This document shows positions 8,020 through 50,284 of a stretch of 64,000 nt of DNA, in pieces (positions within the stretch are counted from its first letter, which is position 1; each line of letters starts with the position of its first letter). The stretch is from IMG/VR virus record IMGVR_UViG_3300028797_000106, one strand, 5' to 3'. Position numbers and translations under genes: made by a program. The notes under the pieces are model-generated. The model was not told the origin of the DNA. It saw nothing but the letters and a program-made list of their open reading frames with translations, and searched no databases. Source of the DNA: a virus. Taxonomy: Duplodnaviria; Heunggongvirae; Uroviricota; Caudoviricetes.

Positions 8020-8026
8020 ATAAACA

Positions 8027-8700: not shown

Positions 8701-8711
8701 CGGGAGGTTTC

Positions 8712-9119: not shown

Positions 9120-9129
9120 ATAAATCACT

Positions 9130-10387: not shown

Positions 10388-10393
10388 GAACTT

Positions 10394-13210: not shown

Positions 13211-13903
13211 TTATAGCGGTTCGCAGATTTTCTTTAATCGCGGAATGATTGTATCTGAATAACAGTGCCTACGGTTCATGCTTGACGAAATACCGTCGCG
13301 TGTTTCTTTTGCGATTTGATAGTACCTAAATGGACAGTTATCATTCTGAAGAACCTTTATGCCAAATTTGGCTGCAAGGACACCATACAAAGCATCATCG
13401 TGATTTGTGTTTAAGACTTCATCAAGCTCTATTGCTTTTAGACCTGCATCTTTAAATGCGTTCGGCGGATAGATTGTTCCCCAACCGCCGGCACCCCAAG
13501 AAATGTTATATCCGTGATGCACTTCATTAACGAAAATACAGTCTTGGTTTCTTAACCAGCGGGTATATAAAATTTCAGCGAAATTGCGAATGTAGACTAT
13601 ACCGTCATCTGCGCTGATGATTGGTACATTTGGATATTTTGCCATTGTAGGAATGATCTTTTTGAAGACCTTGTAATTTCGTTTTGTCCAGATTACCTCA
13701 ATGACATCATATTTAATTTGTTCACGAAGTTTATCAGGAAGATCCGCTTCTTTATTTGGGAACTCATTTTCTGAAAGAACAAGGACAATATGAAAGCCAG
13801 GATTGTGCTTGATGATACTGAAGATTGTCGCATACACGGAGTTTATTCTAGCTTTCCAAGATGTAAGAGAAATGATTGCTTTTTCGCCGTTATACTGTTT
13901 CAT
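13211..13903 (-). CDS. Putative glycosyltransferase, GT25-like
   Basis: AIISLTSWKARI N-terminal motif and IISADDG; clear paralog of 9707-10387 (shared VLVLS.EEF, PTM.KYP, PII..DD blocks). Confidence 0.5.
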   Translation of the reverse strand: MKQYNGEKAIISLTSWKARINSVYATIFSIIKHNPGFHIVLVLSENEFPNKEADLPDKLREQIKYDVIEVIWTKRNYKVFKKIIPTMAKYPNVPIISADDGIVYIRNFAEILYTRWLRNQDCIFVNEVHHGYNISWGAGGWGTIYPPNAFKDAGLKAIELDEVLNTNHDDALYGVLAAKFGIKVLQNDNCPFRYYQIAKETRDGISSSMNRRHCYSDTIIPRLKKICEPL

Positions 13904-13923
13904 GTGGTATTTATAAATACAAC

Positions 13924-14814
13924 ATGAGTAAGATTAATAGTGAACCTATAGATATTGTTGTGCCGTGGGTAAATCCTAATGATGAACAATGGTTTAGAAT
14001 ACTTAGCCATTTTAGAAAAACAACATCCGGTGAAAAAGATGATATTCGTTTTAGGGATTTAGATGTTTTTAGATATTGGTTTAGGGGTATAGATAATTAT
14101 ATGCCTTGGGTTAGGTATGTATTTTTGATTTTAGCATCGCCATCACAAATACCTGCCTGGTTGAATACTGAACATTCAAAATTAAAAATTATATACCATA
14201 AAGATTTTATTCCTGCATCGGAATTACCGACTTTTAATAGCTCTGTAATAAATTGTTATGTTCCTTACATTGAAGAATTAAGTGATAATTATATTCTTTT
14301 TAATGATGACATGTTTATTATGAAGCCACAGTTGGAAGAAAATTGGTTTAAGAATGATTTGCCTGTTTATTTTTTAATGCATGAACGGTATCAACGAAAT
14401 GGAAAGTGGTCTGAAAACATTGTAAACTCAAAGACGCTTGCGTCAGCATATACAGGAATTACATGTGACTCAAATCCAGAACATGGACCTATAGCTAATA
14501 AGAAAATGATGAATATGTTTTTCTTTGAACGTTATAAAGCAAACTTTCAAAATGCATTGGGCAATTCTAGGTTTAGAACTGCAAAAAACGTCACGGATTG
14601 GATTTATTTTTTCTTTTGTGTTCCGTTAAATAAATTTTATGAAAATAAGACTTCCAGGGTTTTATATTGGTCAAATGAAAAAGAACCAAAACAAATAAAA
14701 GATGTAGTGTGTTTTAATGATTCTTCACTTATTAAGAATTTTGATGCATTTAAAGTAATGGTTAGAAATTTTCTAAATAATAGATTTCCAAATAAATGTA
14801 GGTTTGAAAAATGA
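13924..14814 (+). CDS. Stealth-family protein (capsule-type hexose-1-phosphate transferase homolog)
   Basis: CR1-like IDIVVPWVNPND. CR2-like RFRDLDVFRYWFRGI...MPWVRYVFLILASPSQIPAWL. NDDMFIM block. ATG at 13924 avoids overlap with the divergent gene. Confidence 0.7.
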   Translation: MSKINSEPIDIVVPWVNPNDEQWFRILSHFRKTTSGEKDDIRFRDLDVFRYWFRGIDNYMPWVRYVFLILASPSQIPAWLNTEHSKLKIIYHKDFIPASELPTFNSSVINCYVPYIEELSDNYILFNDDMFIMKPQLEENWFKNDLPVYFLMHERYQRNGKWSENIVNSKTLASAYTGITCDSNPEHGPIANKKMMNMFFFERYKANFQNALGNSRFRTAKNVTDWIYFFFCVPLNKFYENKTSRVLYWSNEKEPKQIKDVVCFNDSSLIKNFDAFKVMVRNFLNNRFPNKCRFEK

Positions 14815-15644
14815 AAATTGTAGTAACGATGACATCCTATCCAAAAAGAATAAAAGAAGTCGGAAAGTTCATATATCGTTTTTTTAAGACACAGACTGAA
14901 CGTCCTGATTATTTTTATTTATGGTTATCCTCTGTAAATTTTCCAAATAAAGAGAAAGATTTGCCACAAGATTTATTATATGTTTGCGATGCATTCGGCG
15001 TAATTATATCATGGGTTGATTATGATGATGGCTGCACTAAACGATGGAATGTATATCCTAAACATTATGAAGACTGTGTGGTTGCTGTTGATGAAGATAA
15101 TGAATATGATTATCATTTAATTGAAACTATGCGTAAATTTAATTATAGTCCAAAAACGATTTATGCAGTTTGGGAAAGTTTAACAAATTATTTAGTACTA
15201 AATGAAGGCATAGATTTTAGATATATACATTATAAGAAATTAAAACTTGCCGATCATTCGTTAAGAATGAAAATATCTGGTAATAGTGTTATACCACCAA
15301 GAACATTTCCGCTTGAAGCATTAAATCCTGAATACTTACCATTACGATTAAAGTATTGTAAGAAATGCGATGAAAGCTGGCTTCAGCCATTTTATAGATG
15401 TGCAGGAATAGAGTCTTCTGTGCTTCATTTGAAAAAATATGCATGTGATGATAAAATGAATGCAACTGGAATAAATGCACAAGGACGGCGCATCAATGGT
15501 GTTTGGTGGAAGAATTTACAGATGTATTTGGTTTTAAGATTATTTCCTAAAATGATGGAACGATGGAAAGAATTATTTCCATCATACAATGATGATAAAT
15601 TTAAAGATATGTCAATAGATGAATTAGCAAAGTTGCTGGGATAA
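14811..15644 (+). CDS. Putative glycosyltransferase, GT25-like
   Basis: IVVTMTSYPKRI N-terminal motif, third member of the local paralog family; VAVDEDNEY acidic motif. Confidence 0.45.
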   Translation: MKIVVTMTSYPKRIKEVGKFIYRFFKTQTERPDYFYLWLSSVNFPNKEKDLPQDLLYVCDAFGVIISWVDYDDGCTKRWNVYPKHYEDCVVAVDEDNEYDYHLIETMRKFNYSPKTIYAVWESLTNYLVLNEGIDFRYIHYKKLKLADHSLRMKISGNSVIPPRTFPLEALNPEYLPLRLKYCKKCDESWLQPFYRCAGIESSVLHLKKYACDDKMNATGINAQGRRINGVWWKNLQMYLVLRLFPKMMERWKELFPSYNDDKFKDMSIDELAKLLG

Positions 15645-15648
15645 AAAT

Positions 15649-16491
15649 ATGGATTTTCGTAATTATCAAGATTTTAATTATATGAATGCATTGTGTTTTC
15701 ATTCTATGAATAGAATACCCAATGACATTGATTTAATTGTGTGTATTCCGCGTAGCGGTTTAATTTTTGGCACTTTGATTGGTGAATATAAATCATTGCC
15801 AACTATATCTTTATTTGAGTTTTTATCTGGTGTTAATACATTCAAAATACGAGGTGCGTCTCGTTCGCCTTTATTTGAAAAACAGCCTAAACATATTTTA
15901 TTGTTTGATGATGCAATGGGATTGGGTGAAAGCATGCAAACAGCTAAAACAAAAATTTTAGAAAAGTTTCCAGATCTAAAAATAACTACTTGTGTGATGT
16001 TTGTTGAGCCTTATTCAGTTAATAAAGTAGATATTGCATTTAAAGTTTTTAAAGATCAGCTGCTTCCGTGGAATATCATGAAGCGCGGCATAGGTTGCGG
16101 CTGTGTAGACATGGATGGTTTTTTATGTGTAGATCCAACGTCAAATGATACAAAAACCGAAGAAGCATATTTGAATTTCATAAAGAATGCAAAACAAAAA
16201 TATGTTCCTGACCATAAAATCAAATACATAGTTTCAGGACGTTTGGAAAAATACAGAAAAGAGACAGAGGAATGGCTTAAATGCCATAACATACAATATG
16301 AAAACCTTATATTGTGTCCAGCAAAAAATAATGAAGAACGCCGTAAAATGACGCCTGAGAAATATAAAGCTGACTTTTATAAGAAATCTAAATGTTTAAT
16401 TTTTATTGAAAGCAATTATGGTGAAGCAAAGGCTATTGCTAAAATGACAAATATGCCTGTTTACTGTACCGATGTATGTGAACTTTTATGA
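15649..16491 (+). CDS. hypothetical protein with PRTase-like N-terminus and HAD-like DxDG motif
   Basis: DLIVCIPRSGLIFGTLIG resembles a type I PRTase loop; VDMDGFLCVD resembles HAD motif I; function unknown. Confidence 0.4.
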   Translation: MDFRNYQDFNYMNALCFHSMNRIPNDIDLIVCIPRSGLIFGTLIGEYKSLPTISLFEFLSGVNTFKIRGASRSPLFEKQPKHILLFDDAMGLGESMQTAKTKILEKFPDLKITTCVMFVEPYSVNKVDIAFKVFKDQLLPWNIMKRGIGCGCVDMDGFLCVDPTSNDTKTEEAYLNFIKNAKQKYVPDHKIKYIVSGRLEKYRKETEEWLKCHNIQYENLILCPAKNNEERRKMTPEKYKADFYKKSKCLIFIESNYGEAKAIAKMTNMPVYCTDVCELL

Positions 16492-16502
16492 AGAACATAA
16501 AA

Positions 16503-16535
16503 AGACCGGTGCTTAGCCGGTCTTTTATTTTATTA
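16503..16535. terminator. Bidirectional intrinsic terminator
   Basis: agaccgg-tgcttag-ccggtct hairpin flanked by A tract and T tract between convergent genes. Confidence 0.6.
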
Positions 16536-16898
16536 TAAGTGATTGTGTGCCCTGTGTTCTGCGATGTCGTGAATTCTTTTGCCGATTTCTTTGACCTTCT
16601 CAACCGGCACATCTTTATCCAGTTCTTCTGTATAGTTAGCACCTGAATTCATTCCCTTGATGAAAACGACGATCTTGCCTTTGTCATAATCATACTCGAT
16701 ATTAGCGAGTGTCTGATTATGGTTCATCAGCCTTACCCAATATGCAGAGCCAGGCATCTTGCTGAAAACGATTTCATCGCCGCTGACAAAGCCACAGCAA
16801 TTTGAAAGATCTTCAATGAATTCATCTAAGCCGGTTGCTGACCATTCACATATCAGTCCGGCTTTGCCTAATTCTTTAAATGCTTCGTGTAATTCCAT
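16533..16898 (-). CDS. hypothetical protein (shares N-terminal L.KAGLI.E motif family)
   Basis: 121 aa; N-terminus MELHEAFKELGKAGLICE. Confidence 0.5.
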   Translation of the reverse strand: MELHEAFKELGKAGLICEWSATGLDEFIEDLSNCCGFVSGDEIVFSKMPGSAYWVRLMNHNQTLANIEYDYDKGKIVVFIKGMNSGANYTEELDKDVPVEKVKEIGKRIHDIAEHRAHNHL

Positions 16899-17069
16899 TA
16901 CTTACTCCGTAAAGCATTGGCGAACTTATGTAATGAAACGCAAAAGTCGCCGTGCTTCAAATTTTTGCATTCCTTAACTTCTATCAGTTGTTCAATGTTT
17001 TGAACTTCTGGATAGTCTTTCTTAAGTACTGCAACTAGCTGTTCTTTAATTATTTCTTTGTAGTTCATG
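16896..17069 (-). CDS. hypothetical small protein (57 aa)
   Basis: Minus-strand ORF MNYKEIIKEQLVAVLKKDYPEVQNIEQLIEVKECKNLKHGDFCVSLHKFANALRSK; stop overlaps the start of 16533-16898 (TAATG). Confidence 0.3.
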
Positions 17070-17114
17070 TTCTATTTATTCTTGTTTTTCTTCCATTCAT
17101 TATATTCTTGAAAA

Positions 17115-18023
17115 TCAAACAAATTCAGGTATGTAGGTTTTATACCAATAGAAGACAATTTCATATTTCTTTGCCGCGCCTTGTGCAACCAAAGTAAAGC
17201 TATTTTCACCATCCAAATTATTGTCTTTAAGTAATAGGTTTGCGTCAGATTCACGAGCATCATTTCCTTGCTTAAGCGTGATTACGGAACCTTGTTTTGC
17301 TGAAATGTTCTGTGCTGGAATTTCATTATTTAGAATTGTCACAGTTTCAGGAAATGTCATTTTAATCTGATAAAATACATCAGCTGAAAGATTATAGTCA
17401 ATGTCAAATCTTACGCCATCAATCGTTGTATGTTTCTTACCAGCTTTTGCTGAGAAACACATATAGTGTGCATTGAAATCGGTCCAAATTTGTAATATGA
17501 AATCAGGTGCAGCAATGTGAAGCTCAGATTCTTGCATGATATCACGACTGATTTGAATACCGCCGCTTATTGAAAAATACTGTTCGTATTTTGACCCTTT
17601 GACTTTTATACCATTTCCAAAAGCATCACCGCCGATGTATAAATGGTCAAGCGCATCATTTGGATATTCCTGTAGAAGTAATACTTGCAATACTTCTGAG
17701 TTTTCATCATTAACCAAAAATATAGCGTGCTCATCAAATGAATATGCATTAGGAAATACACGAATTATGTCATTTGCTATAACAGCGGCCTGTTGTGCAG
17801 GTATTGTTTCTAAAGTGCTTAAACGAGATTGAATGTTTGTAAGTGAACTCTCAAGCGCAGATAGACGAGGTTCACATTCACATTCTTTAATGATTGTTGT
17901 GGTACTTCCTGTGTTAGATGATGAAGATGAGCTGCTTGAACTCTGACTAGGCATTGAGGTAGAAGGTGTGTATGAATATGTATATGTTGACCCTGATTTA
18001 GGTCTTGCATTTAGACGACGCAT
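17115..18023 (-). CDS. hypothetical protein with Ser/Thr-rich N-terminal region
   Basis: 302 aa; poly-Ser tract SSSSSSSSSNTGSTTT followed by a short coiled segment and a beta-rich C-terminus. Confidence 0.5.
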   Translation of the reverse strand: MRRLNARPKSGSTYTYSYTPSTSMPSQSSSSSSSSSNTGSTTTIIKECECEPRLSALESSLTNIQSRLSTLETIPAQQAAVIANDIIRVFPNAYSFDEHAIFLVNDENSEVLQVLLLQEYPNDALDHLYIGGDAFGNGIKVKGSKYEQYFSISGGIQISRDIMQESELHIAAPDFILQIWTDFNAHYMCFSAKAGKKHTTIDGVRFDIDYNLSADVFYQIKMTFPETVTILNNEIPAQNISAKQGSVITLKQGNDARESDANLLLKDNNLDGENSFTLVAQGAAKKYEIVFYWYKTYIPEFV

Positions 18024-18043
18024 AATTTACCTCCCCTTTTTAT

Positions 18044-18781
18044 TTACGGATTGAACTGATACCATGTTTCAAAGTAGTCAGGTTCATTTCTGGTGTATTG
18101 CATATACACGCCCAAGATTGACCTGCCCATCAGCTGAGAATGATGCAACATATACCAAATCACTTCCGCAACTTCATACGGGCTGATTGGACTGTCGCCG
18201 CCTTCTTCCAATACTTCAGCGATTTGCGGTTCAAATTCAGCGACATGCTTTTCTGCGTATGAACGGCCAGCGTCATCGCTGTCATAGCAGTTATCGTAAA
18301 TCTGAGCGAGCTTCTTTGTTACGATTTCACGGTAGTTGTCGGTGCTTTCGTTGACTGATTCGCTCTGAATTGCCTTGACCTTTTTCATGTAAGCATGCAA
18401 CTGAGTTAAGCTAAATGCTATCTGAACAAAGCCGCCGTTGTTATTTCTGATAATGCGCCAAGGATAGCTGTTTCCTCTCCAATAGAAAGCACCGTGTCTA
18501 CGGAACTGGACTTCCCATGTAGCATTTTCCATCACAATTTCAAATTGCTGTGTGACGCCCTTGTCATCAGGGTCTACTTCATAGTAGTTTTTTACAGGTC
18601 TAACTTTCTCAATCTCTTCAACGATTTCTTCAACGATTGCTTCGTTGCTATTTGCAGCAATTCGTGCAAGAGCATCTTCAGTTGTTTCCTCAGCAATAAG
18701 ACCTGCTTTATTCAAAATCTGTTGTGCCTCAGAAAGCTCCATGTAAACCTCCAGAATAATTTTTAGTTGACCTGCCGTCAA
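18044..18781 (-). CDS. hypothetical protein (N-terminal LNKAGLIAEE motif family)
   Basis: 245 aa. Confidence 0.5.
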   Translation of the reverse strand: MTAGQLKIILEVYMELSEAQQILNKAGLIAEETTEDALARIAANSNEAIVEEIVEEIEKVRPVKNYYEVDPDDKGVTQQFEIVMENATWEVQFRRHGAFYWRGNSYPWRIIRNNNGGFVQIAFSLTQLHAYMKKVKAIQSESVNESTDNYREIVTKKLAQIYDNCYDSDDAGRSYAEKHVAEFEPQIAEVLEEGGDSPISPYEVAEVIWYMLHHSQLMGRSILGVYMQYTRNEPDYFETWYQFNP

Positions 18782-19204: not shown

Positions 19205-19424
19205 ATTCGTATTGAAATGCAATGATTGGGAAGATCATAACAACCCAGTTTACGTCAAACATGTTGATTGGGAAAAAGACTGTTTATTTGGCTATGACGT
19301 AACTGAGGACATAACAAAAGCACAAAGATTTTCACAGAAAATGGCTTATAGGATGTCCGATGAAATTTACGATTCTTACTGTGATGATTTTGAGGTTATA
19401 AATACTTCGTATGAAGCAGATTAA
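19191..19424 (+). CDS. hypothetical protein
   Basis: Internal ATG minimising overlap with the previous gene. Confidence 0.4.
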   Translation: MMRNRFVLKCNDWEDHNNPVYVKHVDWEKDCLFGYDVTEDITKAQRFSQKMAYRMSDEIYDSYCDDFEVINTSYEAD

Positions 19425-20541
19425 CCGTTTTTGGAATGTTGCGGTACCGGGTATCGCCATTCCTACATGTATCGGTTCCGTCTATTGCTGGTCTCAGTTC
19501 TCAGCTGCACTTGCTGCAACATTCGGAATCTCTATTTTCGCAACCAACATCGGTTTCACCTTAATCATTTTCTTCCTTGGTGTCTTTGCGGCACTGTTTG
19601 GAAGGACGATTGAGGTCAACCCTAAGATTGGTGCCATTCTTTCAACCATCATTTTTGTTTCAGGCTTCTTGCTGTTGGGCCTTTCGGTCTATACAGGCTG
19701 CCTTCCGCTCTTTTACGCAGCGACTGCGACGATTGGCGCGGGCACAGGAATAGGATATGTCACACCGATTAAGACCTTGATGGCGTATTTTGCAGATCAT
19801 AAGGGTCTCGCAAGCGGTTTGGCTATCACAGGGTTCGGGCTGGCTAAGTTTATTGCCTCTCCGGCTATCGCTTTTTTGATTGCTGCTGTTCCTTTACATC
19901 AGGTTTTCATAATTCTTGGGCTCGTTTATGCAGTCATCATGACCATTTCAACGGTCTTGCTAAAGAAATATGATTTTGGACCTGAAATCCAGCACCCATT
20001 CAAGTATGGCGACATATTGAAGAGCAAAGAATGGTGGGCAATTTGGTTTATGTTCATGGTGAACATATCTTGTGGCCTATCTATCATCGCTCAGGAAGCA
20101 GCATTGCTTGGAATTATGGGCATTCCGTTCATCGCAGGCATTCTAGCGATGACAGCACTTGCCAATTCAGGTGGTCGCCTTGGTTTTTCAACATTGTCAG
20201 ATAAGATTGGCAGAAAGGCATCATACCATTTCGTTTGTTCATTTGGAATGCTCGGTGCTTTATTCTGTATCACGGGCAACCCTATCATGGCAGTAATCGG
20301 TATCTTCCTTTGTGAAGCAGCATACGGCGGAAATTTCTCTTGTTTGCCATCCTTGCTCGCAAAACGCTTTGGAATTTACAATTCTAGCAAGGTTCATGCT
20401 ATGACATTGACTGGCTGGAGCATTGGAGGCATCTTCGGACCGCTTCTAGCTGCGACATTTGTCGGCACCAACCTTTATATTGTGCTTGCTATCCTTTATT
20501 TCATTGCATTTACGGTAATGGAAATTTTCGTTCGGAAATAA
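19411..20541 (+). CDS. Major facilitator superfamily (MFS) transporter
   Basis: 376 aa, about 12 hydrophobic segments; MFS motif A-like GRLGFSTLSDKIGRK. Confidence 0.65.
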   Translation: MKQINRFWNVAVPGIAIPTCIGSVYCWSQFSAALAATFGISIFATNIGFTLIIFFLGVFAALFGRTIEVNPKIGAILSTIIFVSGFLLLGLSVYTGCLPLFYAATATIGAGTGIGYVTPIKTLMAYFADHKGLASGLAITGFGLAKFIASPAIAFLIAAVPLHQVFIILGLVYAVIMTISTVLLKKYDFGPEIQHPFKYGDILKSKEWWAIWFMFMVNISCGLSIIAQEAALLGIMGIPFIAGILAMTALANSGGRLGFSTLSDKIGRKASYHFVCSFGMLGALFCITGNPIMAVIGIFLCEAAYGGNFSCLPSLLAKRFGIYNSSKVHAMTLTGWSIGGIFGPLLAATFVGTNLYIVLAILYFIAFTVMEIFVRK

Positions 20542-28142: not shown

Positions 28143-28265
28143 GTATGCCGCAGAGTAATGAAGCTTTATTGGAATTAATGAACACTATATGGAAAGAACT
28201 TGAAAAACAACAAGACGCAAAGGAAAACCTCTGCGCCACAAAAACAACAGAAGAGGACAACTACG

Positions 28266-29408
28266 ATGTATTTGCCTAAGTTAGAAGATTACATGGAGAA
28301 GTTAGAAGAAAACGAAATCTTCTCCTGCGAAGACGAACATTTCATTGGGTTCAAGTATAATGCACCCACCACATACTTCCACTACTGGAATGATGTGACG
28401 CTGAATGCTCGCGGTATTGTCTTTGACAAGCAGACTGGTGAAATCGTTGCTCGTCCTTTCTACAAGTTCTTCAACTACCAGGAACTTATCAACGGTGAAG
28501 GACAGAGAACCGACATCCTAGATAAGGTTGAAGCATGCGGTTGGCGTCTTGACGCAACACAGTCTTTCCGTGTCATGGACAAGTTGGACGGTTCCTTGGG
28601 AATCGTCTTCTATGACAAGTATGCAGATAAGTGGCGTGTAAAGACAGGTGGTTCCTTCTCCTCTGACCAAGCAGTCTGGGGACAGAAGTGGTTTGACGAA
28701 AATGTGAACCTTTCTGAACTTGTGAAGGGATTTACTTACTGCTTTGAAATTATCTACAACGAAGATGTTCACCCAATCTCTTACGAAAAGGAAGAAATGG
28801 TATTGCTTGGCATCTGTGAAAACCAGACAGGTGTTGAATTGACTTTATCAGCTCTTCAAGACGCAGGAAAGGCATTGGGCGTTCGTGTTGCAGACATCAT
28901 CGAGTTCAAGAACTTTGATGAAGTTCTCCCTTATGCAACAAACCTTCCAAACACAAAGGAAGGCGTTGTGGTGACCTTCAAGAATGGGTTCAAGGTAAAG
29001 ATTAAGGGCAAGGAATTTTTGGAACTTCAAAGAAAGTTCCATAACATGACCGAAGACTTTATCTGGCAGAACTTTGACATCCACACTGGCAAGGTCCCAT
29101 TAGATATCATGGAAGCAATTCCTGAAGAAATGCCCGACTTAAAGCGCTATGCTGAAAACTTGGAAACAAGATACTTCGGCGGATGTGGAATGTCCTTCAC
29201 ACTGGCACATATCATGCGTGAAACCCACCAGGGCGACCGTCGCAAGATTTATGAAGAAGTGTCAAAGGGCATGGAAGCTATGCACATGAAGGGATTAACA
29301 GCAGCAGTAATGCGCTGTGTCACATTATTAGAACATGGAGAAACTCTTACTGACGAAACTTTGCCGGACTCCGTTCGCGAAATTGTCTACAAGACATTAA
29401 AGCCATAG
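28266..29408 (+). CDS. RNA ligase, Rnl1 family
   Basis: Motif I KLDGSL (T4 Rnl1 KEDGSL). RGIVFD...VARPFYKFFN matches T4 Rnl1 RGIMFE...IASRPMEKFFN. ATG at 28266; the ORF-track start at 28200 is TTG. Confidence 0.75.
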   Translation: MYLPKLEDYMEKLEENEIFSCEDEHFIGFKYNAPTTYFHYWNDVTLNARGIVFDKQTGEIVARPFYKFFNYQELINGEGQRTDILDKVEACGWRLDATQSFRVMDKLDGSLGIVFYDKYADKWRVKTGGSFSSDQAVWGQKWFDENVNLSELVKGFTYCFEIIYNEDVHPISYEKEEMVLLGICENQTGVELTLSALQDAGKALGVRVADIIEFKNFDEVLPYATNLPNTKEGVVVTFKNGFKVKIKGKEFLELQRKFHNMTEDFIWQNFDIHTGKVPLDIMEAIPEEMPDLKRYAENLETRYFGGCGMSFTLAHIMRETHQGDRRKIYEEVSKGMEAMHMKGLTAAVMRCVTLLEHGETLTDETLPDSVREIVYKTLKP

Positions 29409-29416: not shown

Positions 29417-29692
29417 ATGAATCAGACAGATGAAATCTATAACCGCATAAAGTTGGCGTTCATCAACCTATCGGAAGATGGCGCTTACTTTACTGAAAAC
29501 CCTGAAACGAAGACATTGTGTCTAAGTCTTAAAGACGGAATGGACACTTTGTCTATCTATCATATTTGGGGCAACAACCCAATTTCCATTTTATGTGGGG
29601 ATGAAGTCAAGACGATAAGCAATAACCCGCCAGATATTGCGGCATGTCTTGCACCTTACATTGAAAGCTGGCGAAAGAACAAGACCATCTAA
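29417..29692 (+). CDS. hypothetical protein
   Basis: 91 aa. Confidence 0.45.
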   Translation: MNQTDEIYNRIKLAFINLSEDGAYFTENPETKTLCLSLKDGMDTLSIYHIWGNNPISILCGDEVKTISNNPPDIAACLAPYIESWRKNKTI

Positions 29693-30447
29693 TGAACTTC
29701 AGACAAGCACTTAGACGATTTAACAGGAAACATCGTCAAATCGTCAACTTGACCATTACCGCAATCTTTCTTGCGGTCACTTGCTGCATAATCATGCAGT
29801 ATCAAACTCACTTATCCAATATGCAGCGTGTAGAGGCTGAAAAGGCCAACGCTGCATTACACGATGCTATCTTGGCAAGACAGGACTCACTTATTGCCGA
29901 AATTGAACATCTGAAAATTGGAATAAGCGATGCAACAAACAGAACATACAAGGTTACCCAAGCTGCCAATGAAATCAAAGAGATAAGGCAGATATCTGAG
30001 CCGGAAGCGATTAAACTTGCTTCTTTGCTTTATGATGAAAGTGAAAGGTCAGGCGTTGACTTTTCTTATGTTCTTGCTATCATTCATGCGGAAAGCCGCT
30101 TTAATCATAAGGTGACTTCAAATGTCGGGGCGCAAGGCATTATGCAGATCATGCCCATGACATTCATTTCAGTAGCTAAGATTTACGGATATGATTATCT
30201 GGAAACGGATATTACCGACCTCAAGAAGAATGTGAGAATTGGAACGCTGTTCCTCCACAGACTTAAGTCAAAGGTTGGCTCATACGACTTAGCATCCGCG
30301 GCCTATAACGGAGGCCCAAAAGCAGCCGCAAATTATAAAAGGCTAATGGCTGGTGACACGACTGCATTCGTCCCCGCGGAAACACAAAAGTATGTAGTGA
30401 CTGTGAATACTTACCGCAATCATTACAGAAAAATCCTAGGAGAATAA
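29692..30447 (+). CDS. Membrane-anchored lytic transglycosylase (SLT domain)
   Basis: N-terminal TM LTITAIFLAVTCCIIM; SLT motif HAESRFNHKVTSNVGAQGIMQI. Confidence 0.65.
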   Translation: MNFRQALRRFNRKHRQIVNLTITAIFLAVTCCIIMQYQTHLSNMQRVEAEKANAALHDAILARQDSLIAEIEHLKIGISDATNRTYKVTQAANEIKEIRQISEPEAIKLASLLYDESERSGVDFSYVLAIIHAESRFNHKVTSNVGAQGIMQIMPMTFISVAKIYGYDYLETDITDLKKNVRIGTLFLHRLKSKVGSYDLASAAYNGGPKAAANYKRLMAGDTTAFVPAETQKYVVTVNTYRNHYRKILGE

Positions 30448-30872: not shown

Positions 30873-31238
30873 ATGACAAAAACTCACTACATCATCGCCA
30901 TCGCAATTTTGGTCGGCCTCGCATTCCTCGCCGGCGGAATGGTCGGAACTCATATTGAAAGAACCCATCACGAGAATTGGTTCGGACGATATGACAAGAG
31001 CTACATCAAGTACCTTGAAGCTCAGAACAAGAAGGTCTCTGAGCATTGGAAAGAGTGCCACGATGAACTTACGGAAGTTCAACGCCCGACCATTTATGTG
31101 CCAAAGAACATGCAAGACTCAATGCTTAATGTGATGGCTCAAACGGTCAAAGAAAAGGAACGCCTTGAAAAACAGTTTGAGGCGGAAAAGGCTGCTGCGC
31201 TTGAAAGACTTCGCAAGATGCTTAAAGACGCGGAATAA
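30873..31238 (+). CDS. hypothetical membrane protein with C-terminal coiled coil
   Basis: N-terminal TM IIAIAILVGLAFLAGGMVG; helical EKERLEKQFEAEKAAALERLRKM. Confidence 0.5.
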   Translation: MTKTHYIIAIAILVGLAFLAGGMVGTHIERTHHENWFGRYDKSYIKYLEAQNKKVSEHWKECHDELTEVQRPTIYVPKNMQDSMLNVMAQTVKEKERLEKQFEAEKAAALERLRKMLKDAE

Positions 31239-31384: not shown

Positions 31385-32650
31385 ATGTCAAAAACTGGTA
31401 TCTTCGGCATCGCCGCTGCTGCTATTCTCATCATCCTTGGTATCTTCGCGGGCAAGCTCGTCGGATATAACCAAGCAACCCAATTGCTCGTGAAACAGTC
31501 GCCGTTTGGCACGCTTTCTTGCGTGGACGAACCGGGCTTCTATTTCAAGGGCTTCGCTTCCATCTTCAAGTATGACCGCACCAAGGACTTCTACTTCAAC
31601 TCTTCAACAGAAAAGGTTAAGGGTGAAGGCTGGGAAGGTGACGACAGCGATGAAGACGACATCTCCGTCACGCTGAGCCGAAACGCTAACGCTGACATCT
31701 CAGGATATTTGAAATATCAGCTGCCTACAAACTGTGATGCGTTAATTAAAATCCATCGTGATCAGCAAAGCGATAAGAAGGTTAAGCATGAGCTTGTAAG
31801 AAATACCGTGCTATCCGCTGTCCGAAAGACTGCACCTATCTTTACGGCTGAAGAAGCTAAGGTTACCCGAATTGCTGAATTCCGTAAGTTGGCAGAAGAC
31901 ATGCTAACTGAAGGTGAATATGCCACAACCATTGAGGTTCTGAAGGAAAAGGCTGGTGAGGACGAAGTTGACTCAAACGGCAAGGTCATTAAGAAGGCAG
32001 AAACTCAGGAATACCGCATTACTAAGTTGAAGCTGGACAAGGACGGCAACCGCGTGCTTACGAAGAAATCTGCGTTGAAGCAGTATGGAATATCTGTGCT
32101 TCAGTTTGAAATTCAGAATGTTAAGCTTGATGAAAAGGCACAGAAGCAGTTGGATATTGTGAAGGAAAGAGAAATGCAGCGAGTCGCCAATGCAACTGCA
32201 GCAGAAACTGCTAAGCAGAAGGCAATTACCGCAAAGGCAGAAGGTGACGCAAAGATTGCAGAAGCCAAGGCAGCACAGGAAGTTATTAAGATGACTGAAG
32301 TTACCCAGGCTCAAAAGGAACGCGATGTTGCTATCCTTCAGGCTGAAAAGGAAAAGGAAGTTGCTCGCCTAAATGCTTTGAAGGCACTTGAAGATGCTAA
32401 GAGAATTCGTGCTGAAGGTGAAGCAGAAGCTGCCGCAAACCGTGCTAAGGTTATTGCAGGTTTGACCCCGCAGGAAAAAGCTGAATGGGATTACAAGACC
32501 CGCGTCGGCGTGGCTGAAGCTCTTGCCAAATCTTCTCACCCGCTCGTTCCTGAAATCATGATGGGCGGCAATGGTGGTAAGGACGGCAATGCGATGGACG
32601 CCGTTGGCTTGAAGATGCTCATGGACATCACGGAAAAGCTTTCCAAGTGA
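31385..32650 (+). CDS. SPFH/band-7-like membrane protein
   Basis: N-terminal TM, central globular region, long Ala/Glu/Lys-rich coiled coil typical of HflK/flotillin-type proteins. Confidence 0.45.
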   Translation: MSKTGIFGIAAAAILIILGIFAGKLVGYNQATQLLVKQSPFGTLSCVDEPGFYFKGFASIFKYDRTKDFYFNSSTEKVKGEGWEGDDSDEDDISVTLSRNANADISGYLKYQLPTNCDALIKIHRDQQSDKKVKHELVRNTVLSAVRKTAPIFTAEEAKVTRIAEFRKLAEDMLTEGEYATTIEVLKEKAGEDEVDSNGKVIKKAETQEYRITKLKLDKDGNRVLTKKSALKQYGISVLQFEIQNVKLDEKAQKQLDIVKEREMQRVANATAAETAKQKAITAKAEGDAKIAEAKAAQEVIKMTEVTQAQKERDVAILQAEKEKEVARLNALKALEDAKRIRAEGEAEAAANRAKVIAGLTPQEKAEWDYKTRVGVAEALAKSSHPLVPEIMMGGNGGKDGNAMDAVGLKMLMDITEKLSK

Positions 32651-32767
32651 GACCGAAAGCCAGTCGTGGTTCCATCTCGTTCCACGACTTGGGAACCACC
32701 CGTCTCTGACCCGTCGGCTATGGTGTTGAAACAGAACGCCGCACCGATGGTATTCAAATAACTTTAG

Positions 32768-32800
32768 CGGGTGCATCTGCACCCGCTTTTCTTTTTCTCT
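32768..32800 (+). terminator. Rho-independent terminator
   Basis: gcgggtgca-tc-tgcacccgc hairpin followed by ttttctttttctc. Confidence 0.6.
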
Positions 32801-32818
32801 CAACAAGGAAACACAAAA

Positions 32819-33259
32819 ATGAAAAAAGGATTTACACTTGTAGAATTGATGGTCGTGATCACAATCATGGGCATCTTAGCGGCAGTAGCCGTTCCAAAAG
32901 CATTCGGACTTGTATGTCTGAATAACCTTGACCGTTGTGAAGCCGAGATGCCGTCTACTTATAAAGAAATTTGCATCAACGGCGACATTCATTCCAGCGA
33001 CCGTCAAGACAGAATTTGTAGGGAACATCTGGCAAAGAAGGTTAAGAAGAATAAGGCACCTGATGTTATCGCCGCACAGCCAGAACCTACCGGCGCCTCT
33101 TCAGTTAAGACCGATACAGTTGTCGTGATTAAGCATGATACGGTCTTCGTCACTGTAAATGAATTACCACTTGATGTATGCATTGAAAACTGTAAGGCGG
33201 AGAACAAATCGGAAAGCCTTATTAAGTTCTGCATCAAAGAAAAGTGCATGAAGGAGTAA
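32819..33259 (+). CDS. Type IV pilin-like protein (prepilin-type N-terminal methylation/cleavage domain)
   Basis: MKKGFTLVELMVVITIMGILAAVAVP is a textbook class III signal peptide with the G-F-T-L-V-E motif. ATG at 32819. Confidence 0.6.
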   Translation: MKKGFTLVELMVVITIMGILAAVAVPKAFGLVCLNNLDRCEAEMPSTYKEICINGDIHSSDRQDRICREHLAKKVKKNKAPDVIAAQPEPTGASSVKTDTVVVIKHDTVFVTVNELPLDVCIENCKAENKSESLIKFCIKEKCMKE

Positions 33260-33261
33260 GT

Positions 33262-33690
33262 ATGCATAAGATGATTGACAAGTTTTTGGTTTTCCTCGTT
33301 GCCTTCTTGCTCTTGGCGATATTCGGATATTACCTTGACCAAAAGGCATTTGACGATGCAGCAGACAAGATCATCAGAACTCCGGTGATTGTCCGCGACA
33401 CAATTCGAGACACGACTGTGGTGCATGACACAACTATCAAGGAGATTAACAAGTACATCACATCTGTCTCATACAGCAACGCTTACCCACCGCGTCTTGA
33501 TACATTTGAAGTTCATCAAGGCAAGACGGAATTAGACATCGTCTTCCAAGACGGTGAACTTCCGATTGACAATGCAGTCGGCTATAAGGTATTATGCAAC
33601 GGGCGTCTCTATGAAAAGAAAGACGATCCTGAAGCTGATCCTTACCGCGACTGTGCAGGCGAATGGGTAATCATAGTAAAGGTAGAATAA
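33262..33690 (+). CDS. hypothetical membrane protein (N-terminal TM)
   Basis: aaggag RBS; FLVFLVAFLLLAIFGYY TM. Confidence 0.5.
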   Translation: MHKMIDKFLVFLVAFLLLAIFGYYLDQKAFDDAADKIIRTPVIVRDTIRDTTVVHDTTIKEINKYITSVSYSNAYPPRLDTFEVHQGKTELDIVFQDGELPIDNAVGYKVLCNGRLYEKKDDPEADPYRDCAGEWVIIVKVE

Positions 33691-33953
33691 TGAAGAAACT
33701 GATTTTGATTATCGCCGTGCTCTTGCTTGTAGGATGTAAATGCCAAAACGGCGGTCCTGCACAGACACGAGGCGGCACGAAGTATTATCCGATTAAGATT
33801 TGCTCTATCGGAGACATGGACGGTTCATCTTGCGTGGAATACAAAGCAAAGGATTACGACTTAACATCTGACTGGCTTTATGTCACTACGCTTGATGACC
33901 ATGAATATGTGTTCAACATGCATGGTTGGGCAATAATAAGAACAAGAAAATAG
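33690..33953 (+). CDS. Putative lipoprotein
   Basis: MKKLILIIAVLLLVGC signal peptide with L-V-G-C lipobox; ATG overlaps the upstream stop. Confidence 0.5.
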   Translation: MKKLILIIAVLLLVGCKCQNGGPAQTRGGTKYYPIKICSIGDMDGSSCVEYKAKDYDLTSDWLYVTTLDDHEYVFNMHGWAIIRTRK

Positions 33954-38906: not shown

Positions 38907-39416
38907 TTGACTATGGATAAGAAATATACATTTGTTTTAGATTGTGACGGCGTATTTACCGATGGGACCTTTCATTACAATTCCGAAGGAAAATGTGAGA
39001 AGGTTTTCGGACCTGATGACGCCGATGCTTTAAAGTTGATTAAAGACAAGGTCAACATTGTCATTTGCTCAGCGGATCATAGAGGATTTCCGATTACGAA
39101 AAAGCGCATAAATGACATGGGTTTTGAACTGACACAAGTCAAGTCAAAAGACCGTCTTCAGTGGATAAAAGATAACTGCAAAGACACGACTGTCGCATAC
39201 ATGGGTGACTCATTCCAAGATGCACCGATCTTCAAAGGCGTAGATGTTCCGATCTGCACTTCTGACTCATCTATTGTCGCAAAGGCTTATGCGAAGTATG
39301 TCACACAAAGTAAGGGTGGAAACCGCGCCGTTGCAGAAGCAGTCTTCTATCTAGCTTGGGAATGGTTCAAACAGTCACCAGAAGAATTGATGAAGGAGAA
39401 TGGTTATGACATATAA
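38907..39416 (+). CDS. HAD-superfamily sugar-phosphate phosphatase, KdsC-like
   Basis: VLDCDGVFTDG motif I, GDSFQDAP, C-terminal SKGGNRAVAE, typical of the KdsC subfamily. Confidence 0.65.
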   Translation: MTMDKKYTFVLDCDGVFTDGTFHYNSEGKCEKVFGPDDADALKLIKDKVNIVICSADHRGFPITKKRINDMGFELTQVKSKDRLQWIKDNCKDTTVAYMGDSFQDAPIFKGVDVPICTSDSSIVAKAYAKYVTQSKGGNRAVAEAVFYLAWEWFKQSPEELMKENGYDI

Positions 39417-39984
39417 TGAAATGAAAGATAAGGTGCTTGCTGAATTGAACGAATCATTGAGTTCGTTTGATGAAAGAATGGTTGACCAGTTTGCTGAAGA
39501 ATTGGCCCACAAGCGCTGCGCTAACATTGTCGCATACGGTGCTGGAAGAATGGGTTATGGTATCAGAGCTTTCATTATGAGGCTCATGCATTTGGGTTTC
39601 CATGCTTATTGGTATGGTGACACGACCATCCCACATCTTGGACCGAACGATATGTTCTTGTTCGCATCTGCATCTGGCAAGACACAGTCTATCGTCAAGA
39701 TTGCTGAAATTGCGAAGGAAAAGACAGGTGTTCGCATCGCATCTTTGACAGGTGATGAAGAGTCACCGCTTGCCAAGCTTTCTGACTTGGTGATTAAATT
39801 TAAGGGATGCAACAACGGATTGAACTCCGAAAACTCTCCAGACAAGATTAACTCTATCCAGCCGATGACAACATTGAATGAACAGTCTGCGTTCATTTTC
39901 TTTGATTTGGTCTCTTTGAAGTTGATGGAAAAACTCAATGAAGACAACAAGACAATGAGCTTTAGACATAACCAGATTGAATGA
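39400..39984 (+). CDS. SIS-domain sugar-phosphate isomerase (6-phospho-3-hexuloisomerase / arabinose-5-P isomerase-like)
   Basis: VAYGAGRMGYGIRAFIMRLMHLGF...ASASGKTQSIV SIS signature, close to PHI/HxlB-type sequences. Confidence 0.65.
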   Translation: MVMTYNEMKDKVLAELNESLSSFDERMVDQFAEELAHKRCANIVAYGAGRMGYGIRAFIMRLMHLGFHAYWYGDTTIPHLGPNDMFLFASASGKTQSIVKIAEIAKEKTGVRIASLTGDEESPLAKLSDLVIKFKGCNNGLNSENSPDKINSIQPMTTLNEQSAFIFFDLVSLKLMEKLNEDNKTMSFRHNQIE

Positions 39985-40699
39985 TTTAGAAGGACAAGAA
40001 GATATGAATATAAGCACATCATTGATTTGTATGAACATGTCTCAGGTTGACAGGGACATAGAACGCATATTAAAGGCAGCAAATGGCGACCAAAGATTTA
40101 GCTGGTTTCATGCGGATGCGATGGACGGTCACTTCGTTCCGCGCCTTGGAATTTCACCAGAACTAATTCGTGACATTAAGACAACATTTCCGCAGATTCA
40201 CATTGACTCTCACTTGATGATTGCCGATCCGTTCACTTATGTGGATGTGATTGCTCCTTATTCTGATTGGGTTGTCTTCCATTATGAAGCAGTAACTGAC
40301 CCGATTAGAACATTGCAGAAGATGCGTAAGACATGGCCGAATGTTAAGGTGGGTCTCGCAATAAATTTGGCAACCGTCTTTAATCCTGAAATCATTAAGC
40401 TCTTTGACGGCGTGATGTTCATGGGAATCTCTCCAGGCGTTCTTGGAACGAATTCTTATCCAGAAATTGTGAAAGGCAAAATCGCAATGACGCCGAACCA
40501 TAAACATTACTTTGTAGATGGTTCTGTGAATTTCAACACAATTAAGGATTACCGTTTGATTAACCCGAACGGAACACTTGTTTGCGGTTCATCAACAATG
40601 TTTAAGAAAGATGAATTTACAGAAAATCTAAATCGTGAAGATTTGGTTGCTTACAACATCAACAGAATAAAGGACGCTATCGGATGCGAAAGACAGTAG
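39977..40699 (+). CDS. Ribulose-phosphate 3-epimerase family protein (Rpe/AlsE-like)
   Basis: FHADAMDGHFVPRLG, DSHLMI, HYEA, GLAINLATV, MGISPGVLGT align with Rpe catalytic motifs. Alternative ATG at 40004. Confidence 0.6.
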   Translation: MNDLEGQEDMNISTSLICMNMSQVDRDIERILKAANGDQRFSWFHADAMDGHFVPRLGISPELIRDIKTTFPQIHIDSHLMIADPFTYVDVIAPYSDWVVFHYEAVTDPIRTLQKMRKTWPNVKVGLAINLATVFNPEIIKLFDGVMFMGISPGVLGTNSYPEIVKGKIAMTPNHKHYFVDGSVNFNTIKDYRLINPNGTLVCGSSTMFKKDEFTENLNREDLVAYNINRIKDAIGCERQ

Positions 40700-42336
40700 T
40701 TATTCCCGCTGCGGGTCTTGGCTCACGCCTTGATGAATTCACAAAGAATTACAACAAAGCGATGTGCACACTTGGCCCTAAGCCAGTAATTTCTTACATC
40801 ATTGAAAAATTTACGAAGGACGATGAAATCATCATCTTGTTGGGATACAAAGGTGACTTGCTGAAACAGGTCGTGAAAGCGTGTTATCCTGACTGGAATA
40901 TCACATTTGTGAATGTTGATGTATTCCAGGGTCCGGGTTCGGGATTGGGATATTCATTGTCTTGTGCTAAGGAACTTTTGCAGAAGCCTTTCATGTTCTG
41001 GTCTAATGACTCACTGATTGATGAAAACATTGATGAATTTGATTATGACCATAACTTTATGGTTTTGTCAACATTCAGACCGACAAAGGCAGATTCTTAT
41101 CGTCATGCTCGCATCGGTAAGTATCAGGTTCAGAGCATTTTACCGAAGGGAGAATATGATCCTGAAGGTAAGACAACATTGCCTTACATCGGTATCTCTT
41201 ATGTCAAGGACTATAAACAGTTCTGGCAAGTTCAAGAAGACATGTATGAATTGTTCGTCAATGCCGGTGAAAGTGCTGGCTTGAATAACTTGAAGGACAT
41301 GAGATATGTTGTCACCAAAACTTGGACAGATACAGGCAACAAGGAAGAACTGATTGCTGCGAAGGAACGCTTCTCGAAGAACATGGAAGCAACAATTTTG
41401 GAAAAGCCTGAAGAAGCAATTTGGTTCATTGACAATAAAGTTGTGAAATTCCACATTGACCCGAAGTTCATTGAAGGTCGTGTGAAACGCTTCCATACAT
41501 TCATCAATGATGAGATGAAGAACCGCAACATCTTGATGCCGAAGCTTTTGAGCAATTCAGCGAATGTGTATGTGTATGAAAAGGCAGAAGGTAAGGTTAT
41601 GTCAACTGATGTAACTCCGTCTTCATTTGGCCTATTCATTCAGTTGTTCTTTGACAGCGTTAAAGAAAGAAGCGTCTCTGACGAATACAAGTTGAACATC
41701 TATAACGACTTCTATAAAGACAAGACTCTCAAAAGAATTCAGAAGTATTGTGAAGGATGGGAAGAACTTGATGGCGACTGTATTATTAACGGTTGTGTAT
41801 GTAATTCAGCCAGAAAGGTGATTGAAAACATTGACTGGGAAATGATCTCAAGAAGAGCCGTTATCACCGACAACTATCATGGAGACTTCCACTTGGAAAA
41901 CATTTTGGTTGACCGTCGTGAAAAGGGCAACACAAAGTGGATCATGCTTGACTGGAGACAAAACTTCGGAAAGACATACGATGGCGACATTTATTATGAC
42001 TTCGCTAAAATGTGGCATTCGTTGATTGTTAACCATCACATGGTGAAGGACAACTTGTTCAGCTTCCGTCAAAAGAATAACGGTGAATATGAAATTGACA
42101 TTCATCGCTCATTCATTGACACTGAATGTGAAGAAAAATTCAAGGATTTCTTGGTTCACTCTAAGTATGACGCCGACTTGGCAGAATTCTTGACAGCAGT
42201 CATCTTCTTGAACATCGCTGCTTGTCATGTGGGCGTTTATTCAACTTTCTTGTTCTATTTAGGTAAGTACCTGATAAACAAGTTTATTAAGAAACATCCT
42301 GATTACTTGAAACCTGATAGCGGTTTAATCTACTAA
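40684..42336 (+). CDS. Bifunctional sugar-1-phosphate nucleotidyltransferase / APH-fold sugar kinase
   Basis: N-terminal VVIPAAGLGSRL NTP-sugar pyrophosphorylase motif. C-terminal HGDFHLENILV...MLDWRQ Brenner-type kinase motif as in choline/aminoglycoside/N-acetylhexosamine kinases. Confidence 0.6.
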   Translation: MRKTVVIPAAGLGSRLDEFTKNYNKAMCTLGPKPVISYIIEKFTKDDEIIILLGYKGDLLKQVVKACYPDWNITFVNVDVFQGPGSGLGYSLSCAKELLQKPFMFWSNDSLIDENIDEFDYDHNFMVLSTFRPTKADSYRHARIGKYQVQSILPKGEYDPEGKTTLPYIGISYVKDYKQFWQVQEDMYELFVNAGESAGLNNLKDMRYVVTKTWTDTGNKEELIAAKERFSKNMEATILEKPEEAIWFIDNKVVKFHIDPKFIEGRVKRFHTFINDEMKNRNILMPKLLSNSANVYVYEKAEGKVMSTDVTPSSFGLFIQLFFDSVKERSVSDEYKLNIYNDFYKDKTLKRIQKYCEGWEELDGDCIINGCVCNSARKVIENIDWEMISRRAVITDNYHGDFHLENILVDRREKGNTKWIMLDWRQNFGKTYDGDIYYDFAKMWHSLIVNHHMVKDNLFSFRQKNNGEYEIDIHRSFIDTECEEKFKDFLVHSKYDADLAEFLTAVIFLNIAACHVGVYSTFLFYLGKYLINKFIKKHPDYLKPDSGLIY

Positions 42337-49872: not shown

Positions 49873-50052
49873 ATGGCTACACGCGGAGATAATAAATCGC
49901 TTTTACTTGAAAAGGCAGAAGATGGTTTCATTGATTGGGAAGACATTGCTCGTGAATGTATTGCTCAAATGTCAAATGATGACTGTTATGATGTCTGTGA
50001 TATGTTAGGACTTTTTGACCAAGACGGCGAAGAAGATTTAGAAGATGAATAA
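49873..50052 (+). CDS. hypothetical small acidic protein (59 aa)
   Basis: Strong aaaggagg RBS then ATG; below ORF-track cutoff. Confidence 0.45.
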   Translation: MATRGDNKSLLLEKAEDGFIDWEDIARECIAQMSNDDCYDVCDMLGLFDQDGEEDLEDE

Positions 50053-50284
50053 CAACCTAACACCAAGTGCGCTGATATTCATACTCATTGTGTGCATTGT
50101 TGCTCTACTTGGACTCGACTTTCTATGCTGGGCAGGCCTAATCTATTTGGCTTGCTGGATATTTGGTTTGCAGTTTCAGTGGACAGGCGCACTATGGATG
50201 TGGGTTATCGGAACAATTCTTATAACATTATTCAATGGAAATCCTAAAAAGGAAGCAAAAGATGAGCAAAGCGATAAAAACTGA
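50045..50284 (+). CDS. hypothetical small membrane protein
   Basis: 79 aa with 2-3 hydrophobic helices. Confidence 0.45.
   Translation: MNNNLTPSALIFILIVCIVALLGLDFLCWAGLIYLACWIFGLQFQWTGALWMWVIGTILITLFNGNPKKEAKDEQSDKN

Follow-up and report, generated by a model that had tools for sequence, protein, structure and literature searches.

We have analysed a 64,000-nucleotide stretch of viral DNA (IMG/VR record IMGVR_UViG_3300028797_000106, class Caudoviricetes), referred to below as the window, with particular attention to one gene on its plus strand. The gene occupies 32819..33259 including the stop codon, with an ATG at 32819 and a TAA ending at 33259, and encodes a chimeric prepilin-type protein of 146 amino acids whose opening residues are MKKGFTLVELMVVITIMGILAAVAVPK. 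An original prediction had described the product as a type IV pilin-like protein of a lytic-type phage, with a canonical class III signal and a cysteine-rich C-terminal region.

The prepilin signal and the start codon

The class III signal reads MKKG/FTLVE. The leader M-K-K-G (32819..32830, plus strand), as read from the sequence, is predicted to be removed by a prepilin peptidase cutting after Gly4, a residue kept in 92 homologues; the mature protein would begin F1-T-L-V-E5, followed by G14 and P22. The mature N-terminus carries the type IVa pilin signature. The pilin α1N segment, mature F1 to K23 (32831..32899, plus strand), contains E5, G14 and P22; the Pfam and TIGRFAM matches lie here, and it is only here that pilins in the PDB match. 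The 146-residue protein scores 34.9 bits against the Pfam family PF07963 (N_methyl; cut-off 21.2, E = 9.3e-9) and 35.8 bits against TIGR02532 (cut-off 16.3). Both scores exceed their cut-offs, confirming the canonical signal with Gly at −1, Phe at +1 and Glu at +5. No other prepilin motif was found in a six-frame translation of the 64-kb window.

The start at ATG 32819 is secure, since an AAGGA Shine-Dalgarno sequence lies about 10 nt 5′ of it, every homologue begins M(K)KGF and the frame of the upstream GTG contains a hairpin. On this start Gly is at −1, as had been claimed. The upstream GTG at 32771 was discarded: the longer frame crosses the hairpin at 32766..32787 and is not conserved. This hairpin, of 9 bp (seven of them GC), has A-runs and T-runs on its flanks. 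It is located between an SPFH gene and the pilin-like gene, 31 nt from the ATG of the latter, and resembles an intrinsic terminator on either strand. No sigma-70-like promoter was found between the hairpin and the ATG.

Conservation of the protein family

About 100 full-length homologues were found, all metagenomic, with overall identities to the query of 39-69% and with all open reading frames (ORFs) intact. Among the matches listed from species-representative bacterial genomes (one per species, 185,579 species) there were no full-length family members. In an alignment of 92 sequences the invariant residues are G4, E9, L10, V13, I16, I19, L20, V23, V25 and four cysteines, while F5, T6, L7, P26, K27 and the remaining four cysteines are at least 90% conserved; G18 and P26 (G14 and P22 of the mature protein) are present and conserved. 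The most divergent members have drifted N-termini (for example KRGSVVELMCVIVV...) but still carry the Gly at −1 and the Glu at +5.

Over the 28 codons from Gly-1 in nine loci, 1008 pairwise codon comparisons gave 445 synonymous and 135 replacement differences. The α1N segment is near-constant across phages whose DNA is saturated in synonymous changes. As an internal control we used six phages that have both the pilin-like gene and an adjacent gene with a transmembrane (TM) anchor. The pilin-type anchor is 89% identical among them compared with 38% for the remainder of the same protein, whereas for the neighbour's generic TM anchor the value is 20%, compared with 33% for the remainder of the neighbour. 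The constraint on the pilin-type anchor thus exceeds that of mere membrane anchoring.

These data also bear on whether the gene is no more than the decaying remains of a host pilin gene once captured, or a chance ORF, without function. The bacterial likeness is indeed limited to the first 33 residues. However, a family of about 100 members with conserved synteny, eight conserved cysteines, an excess of synonymous changes and intact ORFs effectively refutes this explanation, and we give it almost no credence.

Match to Fibrobacter pilins

A homology search against pilins, which the original prediction had proposed, returned type IV pilins of Fibrobacter matching at residues 2-33. The best four N-terminal matches among those listed from the 185,579-species collection come from rumen Fibrobacter metagenome-assembled genomes and are 78% identical over these residues. 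Fibrobacter pilins agree with the family profile at 24-27 of 31 positions, equal to the phage members themselves, compared with typically 18 of 31 for non-Fibrobacter pilins (23 of 31 for the next best among the matches listed). The matching Fibrobacter protein is a 174-residue pilin that clusters with WP_173466959.1, a ‘type IV pilin protein’ of Fibrobacter succinogenes. Up to 27 of the 28 residues from Gly-1 are identical to a Fibrobacter type IV pilin, and the BLASTP likeness ends at residue 33, where the first conserved cysteine begins. Only about half of the residues identical between phage and Fibrobacter use identical codons, the same as in phage-phage pairs, so the likeness is held at the protein level and does not reflect recent DNA transfer.

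From this match the host is probably a rumen Fibrobacter. All Fibrobacteres genomes are reported to encode one prepilin peptidase, PilD, together with PilB, C, M, N, O, Q and T (PMC4704652, Table 4). Type IV pili are implicated in the adhesion of Fibrobacter to cellulose (PMC4704652; PMC3079729), and type II secretion has been reported in F. succinogenes (PMC3079729). The original prediction held that the host must supply the prepilin peptidase. This stands for the 64-kb window, in which no prepilin peptidase or peptidase-like multi-TM ORF was found, and PilD is reported in the inferred host (PMC4704652).

In a tetranucleotide comparison of the window with about 75 bacterial loci, Fibrobacter loci ranked 3rd, 6th, 16th and 17th. 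A Bacteroides host was considered because of a short DNA similarity to crAss001-like Bacteroides phages (123-221 nt, 68-75% identity, region 32412..32632) and was rejected, as the match covers only a short stretch of the SPFH gene. Either common descent of phage SPFH genes or conservation of a coiled-coil segment accounts for this stretch, which is no indicator of the host.

The head domain

The protein has eight cysteines, C33, C40, C52, C67, C121, C125, C138 and C143. A structural model was built with AlphaFold2 (AF2) using the 92-sequence alignment; its mean pLDDT (predicted local distance difference test) is 67.5, a moderate confidence. Helix α1 of the model spans residues 7-35. The first sub-domain of the head (residues 30-78; 32906..33052, plus strand) holds four invariant cysteines, C33, C40, C52 and C67, and is modelled as short helices at 37-43, 45-53 and 61-78 with pLDDT 62-77. 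It is followed on the same strand by a Lys/Pro/Ala-rich linker (33053..33106) that is predicted to be disordered (pLDDT below 50 over residues 80-114) and in which homologues differ by large indels. The motif KTDTVVVIKHDTVFVTV (33107..33157, plus strand) lies in this disordered region and is β-prone; apart from the N-terminus, the cysteine set and the C-terminal module, only D99 and T100 of this motif are invariant or nearly so. That module, C121-x3-C125...C138-x4-C143 (33167..33256, plus strand), is predicted to be a helix hairpin, with AF2 helices at 118-128 and 132-143 and pLDDT of about 84.

The predicted head is all-helical, with no β strands. The pilin head, in which α1C packs on an antiparallel β-sheet of four to five strands with a D-region, is not seen in the AF2 model. 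A Foldseek search of the model against the PDB and BFVD gave nothing below E = 0.25. In a profile search of PDB sequences the only matches are pilins, confined to the first 30-55 residues or so (profile positions 2-57). The best of these are Geobacter ‘geopilin domain 1’ proteins (9egp_A, E = 1.9e-10), and GspG is matched as well. The pilin and pseudopilin models of NCBIfam match residues 2-31 only and none reaches its whole-protein cut-off (GspG 32.1 versus 88.85 bits, GspH 29.5 versus 80, PilA_Myxo 30 versus 400, PRK10574 (PpdD) 29.8 versus 138 and ComGC 23.3 versus 75). Beyond residue 33 or so there is thus no match to pilin families, PDB sequences or folds, in agreement with the claim that the cysteine-rich C-terminal region is unlike known pilins. 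The head is phage-specific and predicted to be disulfide-rich and all-helical, and is fused to the pilin α1N at about residue 33. A profile of the head by itself (residues 28-146) found 33 proteins among 1.84 billion representatives, all of which are either members of the pilin-like family or short proteins with its C-terminal module. By this search the head appears to be an orphan, without relatives outside a small group of phages.

One explanation of such a fusion is an accessory pilin or pseudopilin that is assembled productively into type IV pili or the type II secretion pseudopilus without poisoning the pilus, either displaying the head on the filament (for adhesion, aggregation or receptor camouflage) or re-tuning secretion during infection. 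The α1N segment holds all the assembly residues E5, G14 and P22, and pilins with helical or minimal heads exist, the Geobacter proteins being the top PDB matches. Type II secretion is reported in F. succinogenes, as cited above, and P-FimU, a prophage-encoded mimic of the minor pilin FimU, is incorporated without loss of pilus function (PMC12952977). On the other hand, a disordered linker of about 35 residues and a second module are hard to fit into a filament lattice except at the tip, the scores are far under the specific family cut-offs (32 against 89 bits for GspG, 23 against 75 for ComGC), and a virulent huge phage has little time to profit from a new adhesion. We consider productive assembly quite improbable.

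An SPFH-linked cassette of envelope proteins

The genes around the pilin-like gene were missed by the original prediction. Six consecutive genes on the plus strand of the window, from 29692 to 33953, encode exported or anchored proteins. The first encodes an SLT lytic transglycosylase with an N-terminal signal-anchor (29692..30447), which could be a SAR-type (signal-arrest-release) endolysin and marks the upstream end of the envelope block. The next encodes a 121-residue protein (30873..31238) that has an N-terminal TM segment and a charged helical tail, a shape like that of an i-spanin, and matches no family. It is followed by an SPFH/Band_7 membrane protein (31385..32650), whose gene precedes the pilin-like gene in 10 of 11 loci mapped in related phages. 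Downstream of the pilin-like gene lie the genes of two cassette partners, TM142 and LIPO87. TM142 (33262..33690, 142 residues) has an N-terminal TM anchor and a periplasmic domain with an HDT motif shared with the pilin-like protein, and gave no Pfam, PHROG or PADLOC match; its family was mapped by local phmmer and hmmsearch searches, a word-index homologue search having given two matches. LIPO87 (33690..33953) is an 87-residue lipoprotein (MKKLILIIAVLLLVGC) kept in relatives. A weak PHROG match of LIPO87 to a ‘Cor superinfection exclusion protein’ was rejected as not meaningful, as it covers the signal peptide only. An RNA ligase gene is also among the neighbours. No holin was identified beside the pilin-like gene; small multi-TM holin-like candidate ORFs lie at a distance from the SLT gene, at 50045..50284 and 59915..60112.

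In 10 of 11 related loci the order is the SPFH/Band_7 gene, up to two genes for proteins with Sec or lipoprotein signals, one or two for TM-anchored proteins, the gene for the prepilin-signal protein and one for a small lipoprotein. The cassette is seen at 31385..33953 of the window, at 7396..11194 of locus L005 and 7562..10725 of L006, and also in L088, L090, L093 and L094. In relatives the Sec- and lipoprotein-signal paralogues end in the same cysteine module of about 28 residues (C-x3-C...C-x4-C) as the pilin-like protein, with BLASTP E values of 8e-11 and 2e-7 against its C-terminus. In these versions the mature N-termini are rich in cysteine, and the linkers are rich in Pro and contain ‘EPLVF(R/K)D’ repeats. 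Within the cassette of the window no Sec or lipoprotein paralogue carrying the module is present. A V.HDTVYV-type motif is common to the pilin-like protein (at 33107..33157) and the TM142 family, and it lies at the junction of the natural hybrids P0301 and P0304, in which a TM142-type anchor is joined to the cysteine module; this suggests either a recombination joint or a common binding strand. The family libraries searched, including PHROG and PADLOC, gave no name for any of the small cassette proteins, and PADLOC gave no match for the pilin-like protein and its neighbours.

This context is compatible with an envelope effector that acts independently of pili. The prepilin segment would serve as an N-in/C-out inner-membrane anchor for a periplasmic disulfide-rich module working with TM142, LIPO87 and the Sec/lipoprotein paralogues, either in a spanin-like complex that spans the periplasm for the last step of lysis or in a T4 Imm/Sp-type block to DNA injection or incoming lysozyme. 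The run of anchored and signal-bearing genes that begins with a signal-anchored SLT, and the order kept in nearly all related loci, agree with such a role. So does the presence of an identical module both on an inner-membrane-anchored protein and on secreted proteins or lipoproteins whose linkers are Pro-rich, an arrangement reminiscent of the C-terminal meeting of Rz and Rz1, and the hybrid P0301 swaps the type of anchor while keeping the module. However, an envelope effector leaves unexplained why this anchor is 89% identical and matches a host pilin while the anchor of the neighbour has drifted to 20%, and why no member has lost Gly-1 or Glu+5, the latter lying within the membrane. In addition, the phage of the window is without a Sec or lipoprotein paralogue of the module, there are no matches to spanin, holin or exclusion families, LIPO87 is not Pro-rich and TM142 has no predicted coiled coil. 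We regard a pilus-independent effector, the chief competitor of the pilin mimicry discussed below, as possible but rather unlikely.

The carrier phage

The window is a replication and auxiliary region that encodes PolB, a UvsX-like recombinase, DnaB helicase, a gp32-like single-stranded DNA-binding protein, primase and RuvC, together with a T4-type RNA ligase 1 (Rnl1), ThyX, NAD synthetase, a NUDIX/cytidylyltransferase and a tRNA nucleotidyltransferase; phage structural genes fall outside it. A protein identical to that of the window is encoded on a 264-kb contig, and relatives are found on contigs of 235-299 kb with the same synteny and on IMG/VR viral contigs. The replication module and the copies on contigs of 264-299 kb with the same synteny establish that the gene is phage-borne, as predicted. 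The carrier is a huge rumen phage of about 264 kb. Its description as ‘lytic-type’ is likely to be right, with no integrase or repressor among the roughly 50 ORFs of the window that were scanned, but is unproven.

Several other features of the window were noted. An OFA-family transporter gene of the MFS type (19411..20541) was considered as a host-derived marker and dropped, as its homologues sit on other huge-phage-like contigs. Copies 67-72% identical are found on such contigs of up to 479 kb; that on the 479-kb contig (L168) lies near a DUF2828/DUF7788 gene resembling 6430..8019 of the window. A transporter common to huge gut and rumen phages is unusual. The NUDIX/cytidylyltransferase fusion (152..1234) and NAD synthetase (3790..4566) form a module for NAD+ synthesis, comparable to one reported in gastrointestinal jumbo phages (PMC11662467). 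A possible RNA-repair set at 4999..8019, 28200..29408 and 61724..63178 comprises an AAA ATPase, a DUF2828/DUF7788 protein (phrog_850, ‘RNA-binding protein’), the T4-type RNA ligase 1 and a cytidylyltransferase/tRNA nucleotidyltransferase fusion. An island of low GC content at 13876..18781 (0.30-0.36 versus about 0.42 elsewhere) includes a gene resembling capsule phosphotransferases of the Stealth family (CR1/CR2/CR4), as well as two of the window's rare minus-strand genes, and may be a module for surface polysaccharides that was gained recently. Sugar-phosphate genes follow one another at 38907..42336 (HAD hydrolase, SIS isomerase, ribulose-phosphate 3-epimerase and an NTP-transferase/APH-like fusion); they are kept in the related loci L001 and L006 and suggest a phage nucleotide-sugar pathway.

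A possible role in blocking host pili

The explanation that we tentatively prefer, and that we judge a little short of probable, is that the protein is a chimeric pilin mimic which may be cut by host PilD and enter the pilus assembly pathway to block or alter pili. We favour it because the pattern of constraint and the Fibrobacter match are otherwise hard to explain, and because P-FimU provides a precedent. PilD of the host would cut after Gly4 and methylate the Phe, and the mature protein would join the pool of pilins in the inner membrane. The host-identical α1N would then dock on the pilus assembly platform and pack against the helices of host pilins. The head, which in place of a β-sheet has an extended disordered linker and an additional hairpin stapled by disulfides, would therefore cap, jam or re-surface the filament. 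Type IV pili, which have a link with cellulose adhesion in Fibrobacter, might in this way be lost from the infected cell or changed, and pilus-dependent phages, or the phage's own progeny, would be kept from adsorbing to a cell that is already infected. The pilin-like gene may act together with the other small envelope proteins of the SPFH-linked cassette, with which it has modules in common.

Several observations weigh against this explanation. The predicted head lacks the α/β fold of pilins (AF2, mean pLDDT as above), so co-polymerisation is not guaranteed. Neighbouring paralogues carry the same C-terminal cysteine module behind Sec and lipoprotein signals, and hence the job of the module need not involve pili. 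The gene is embedded among generic envelope proteins near a signal-anchored SLT, a setting that fits a role in lysis or exclusion independent of pili; the conserved cassette with its shared modules likewise supports a function apart from pili. There are no pil or gsp genes in the 64-kb window. Finally, the α1N identity is the single basis of the host assignment, and Fibrobacter is closest only among the genome-scan matches listed, so that a closer non-Fibrobacter pilin is possible.

A bolder form of pilus mimicry, which we hold more doubtful than a pilus-independent effector, would make the whole locus a modular cassette directed against pili or hijacking them. By means of prepilin, Sec and lipoprotein signals, one disulfide-stapled module would reach three sites in the envelope; the prepilin version, as a perfect mimic of the Fibrobacter α1N, would use PilD and the assembly platform to cap or re-surface the pili by which Fibrobacter holds on to cellulose. 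If this were true, infection would switch off fibre attachment and phage adsorption together, linking phage-phage competition to the degradation of fibre in the rumen.

The original prediction listed receptor masking, superinfection exclusion and competence interference as roles; these are guesses. The idea of an engagement with the host pilus machinery, which it also proposed, is strengthened by the near-perfect and long-maintained copy of the Fibrobacter α1N. Should pilin mimicry be the function, it would extend to uncultured huge phages of a key cellulose degrader of the rumen, in a chimeric design in which the assembly helix alone is copied and a phage-invented head is grafted onto it. The genetic context points to a shuffling of modules among export routes. 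The extreme conservation of a host-matched α1N offers a route, from sequence only, to predict the hosts of uncultured phages. Were the protein to block the pili of Fibrobacter, it would matter for cellulose adhesion in the rumen and be a compact tool against type IV pili.

Comparison with known systems

The first experimental demonstration of phage pilin mimicry dates from 2026 and is limited to full-length copies of minor pilins from Pseudomonas: the prophage FimU mimics called P-FimU become part of the pili and prevent adsorption (Sztanko et al., Cell Rep 2026, PMC12952977). Virulent phages were found to have PilA-like genes, some of them N-terminal-only (PMC12952977). P-FimU and P-PilA share with the protein described here a phage-encoded prepilin N-terminus that resembles a subunit of the host pilus, with diverse heads on a conserved N-terminus, and a proposed or demonstrated role in protection from adsorption by other phages (PMC12952977). 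They differ in that their resemblance to the host pilin is full-length, with a pilin fold, whereas here it ends at residue 33 and gives way to an orphan, cysteine-rich helical head. Their carriers are phages or prophages of Pseudomonas or Xylella, compared with a rumen phage of about 264 kb and an SPFH-linked cassette here. The PilA-like proteins of about 60 residues from virulent Pseudomonas phages likewise keep only the N-terminal α-helix of the pilin; the authors of that study propose that they are incorporated while offering phages no binding sites, or that they inhibit assembly (PMC12952977). Those proteins stop after the helix, whereas here some 115 more residues follow, with a linker besides two disulfide-rich modules.

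Type IVa major pilins (PilA/PilE), such as WP_173466959.1, share the leader, Gly-1, Phe+1, Glu+5, Gly14 and Pro22. They have an α/β head and a D-region, both of which are absent from the phage protein, and the phage gene is not in a bacterial genome or beside pilus genes. The Geobacter PilA-N protein, ‘geopilin domain 1’, is a pilin without a β-sheet head that still polymerises; the match to it is confined to α1. ComGC is another pilin with a minimal or helical head. Neither geopilin domain 1 nor ComGC has the eight cysteines or the bipartite head of the phage protein.

Two-component spanins, such as lambda Rz/Rz1 and T4 PseT.3/PseT.2, resemble the locus in combining an inner-membrane-anchored protein with small lipoproteins near a muralytic enzyme and in having cysteine-containing periplasmic parts, and in the loci of relatives an identical C-terminal module occurs on inner-membrane-anchored and lipoprotein partners. 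Set against their layout, the pilin-like protein has an anchor, and its periplasmic part is helical but, in the AF2 model, bipartite with a disordered linker; one gene separates it from a lipoprotein gene downstream (33690), and the SLT gene is 2.4 kb upstream. Spanins differ in that here there is no family match, the prepilin anchor is under pilin-specific constraint, there is no periplasmic coiled coil and the genes neither overlap nor are embedded in one another.

Phages also act on type IV pili with inhibitors that are not pilins, among them PfsE of Pf phage (PMC8764522), Tip and Aqs1. The outcome proposed here is the same, a shutdown of pili against superinfection. These inhibitors are small proteins that bind PilB, PilC or other parts of the machinery and are not pilin look-alikes.

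A prepilin motif in a phage is not new in itself, since PHROGs holds six phage protein families with such a motif, one of them labelled ‘pilin’, and tblastn gave N-terminal-only matches in Vibrio, Aeromonas, Pseudomonas and Acinetobacter phages and in cyanophages. The jumbo-phage papers that we checked, PMC11662467 and PMC13037316 among them, do not mention pilin, prepilin or Fibrobacter. What is new is the chimeric architecture with an orphan cysteine-rich head in uncultured rumen phages of about 230-300 kb, together with the near-perfect and long-maintained match to the Fibrobacter α1N and the SPFH-linked cassette in which export signals are swapped.

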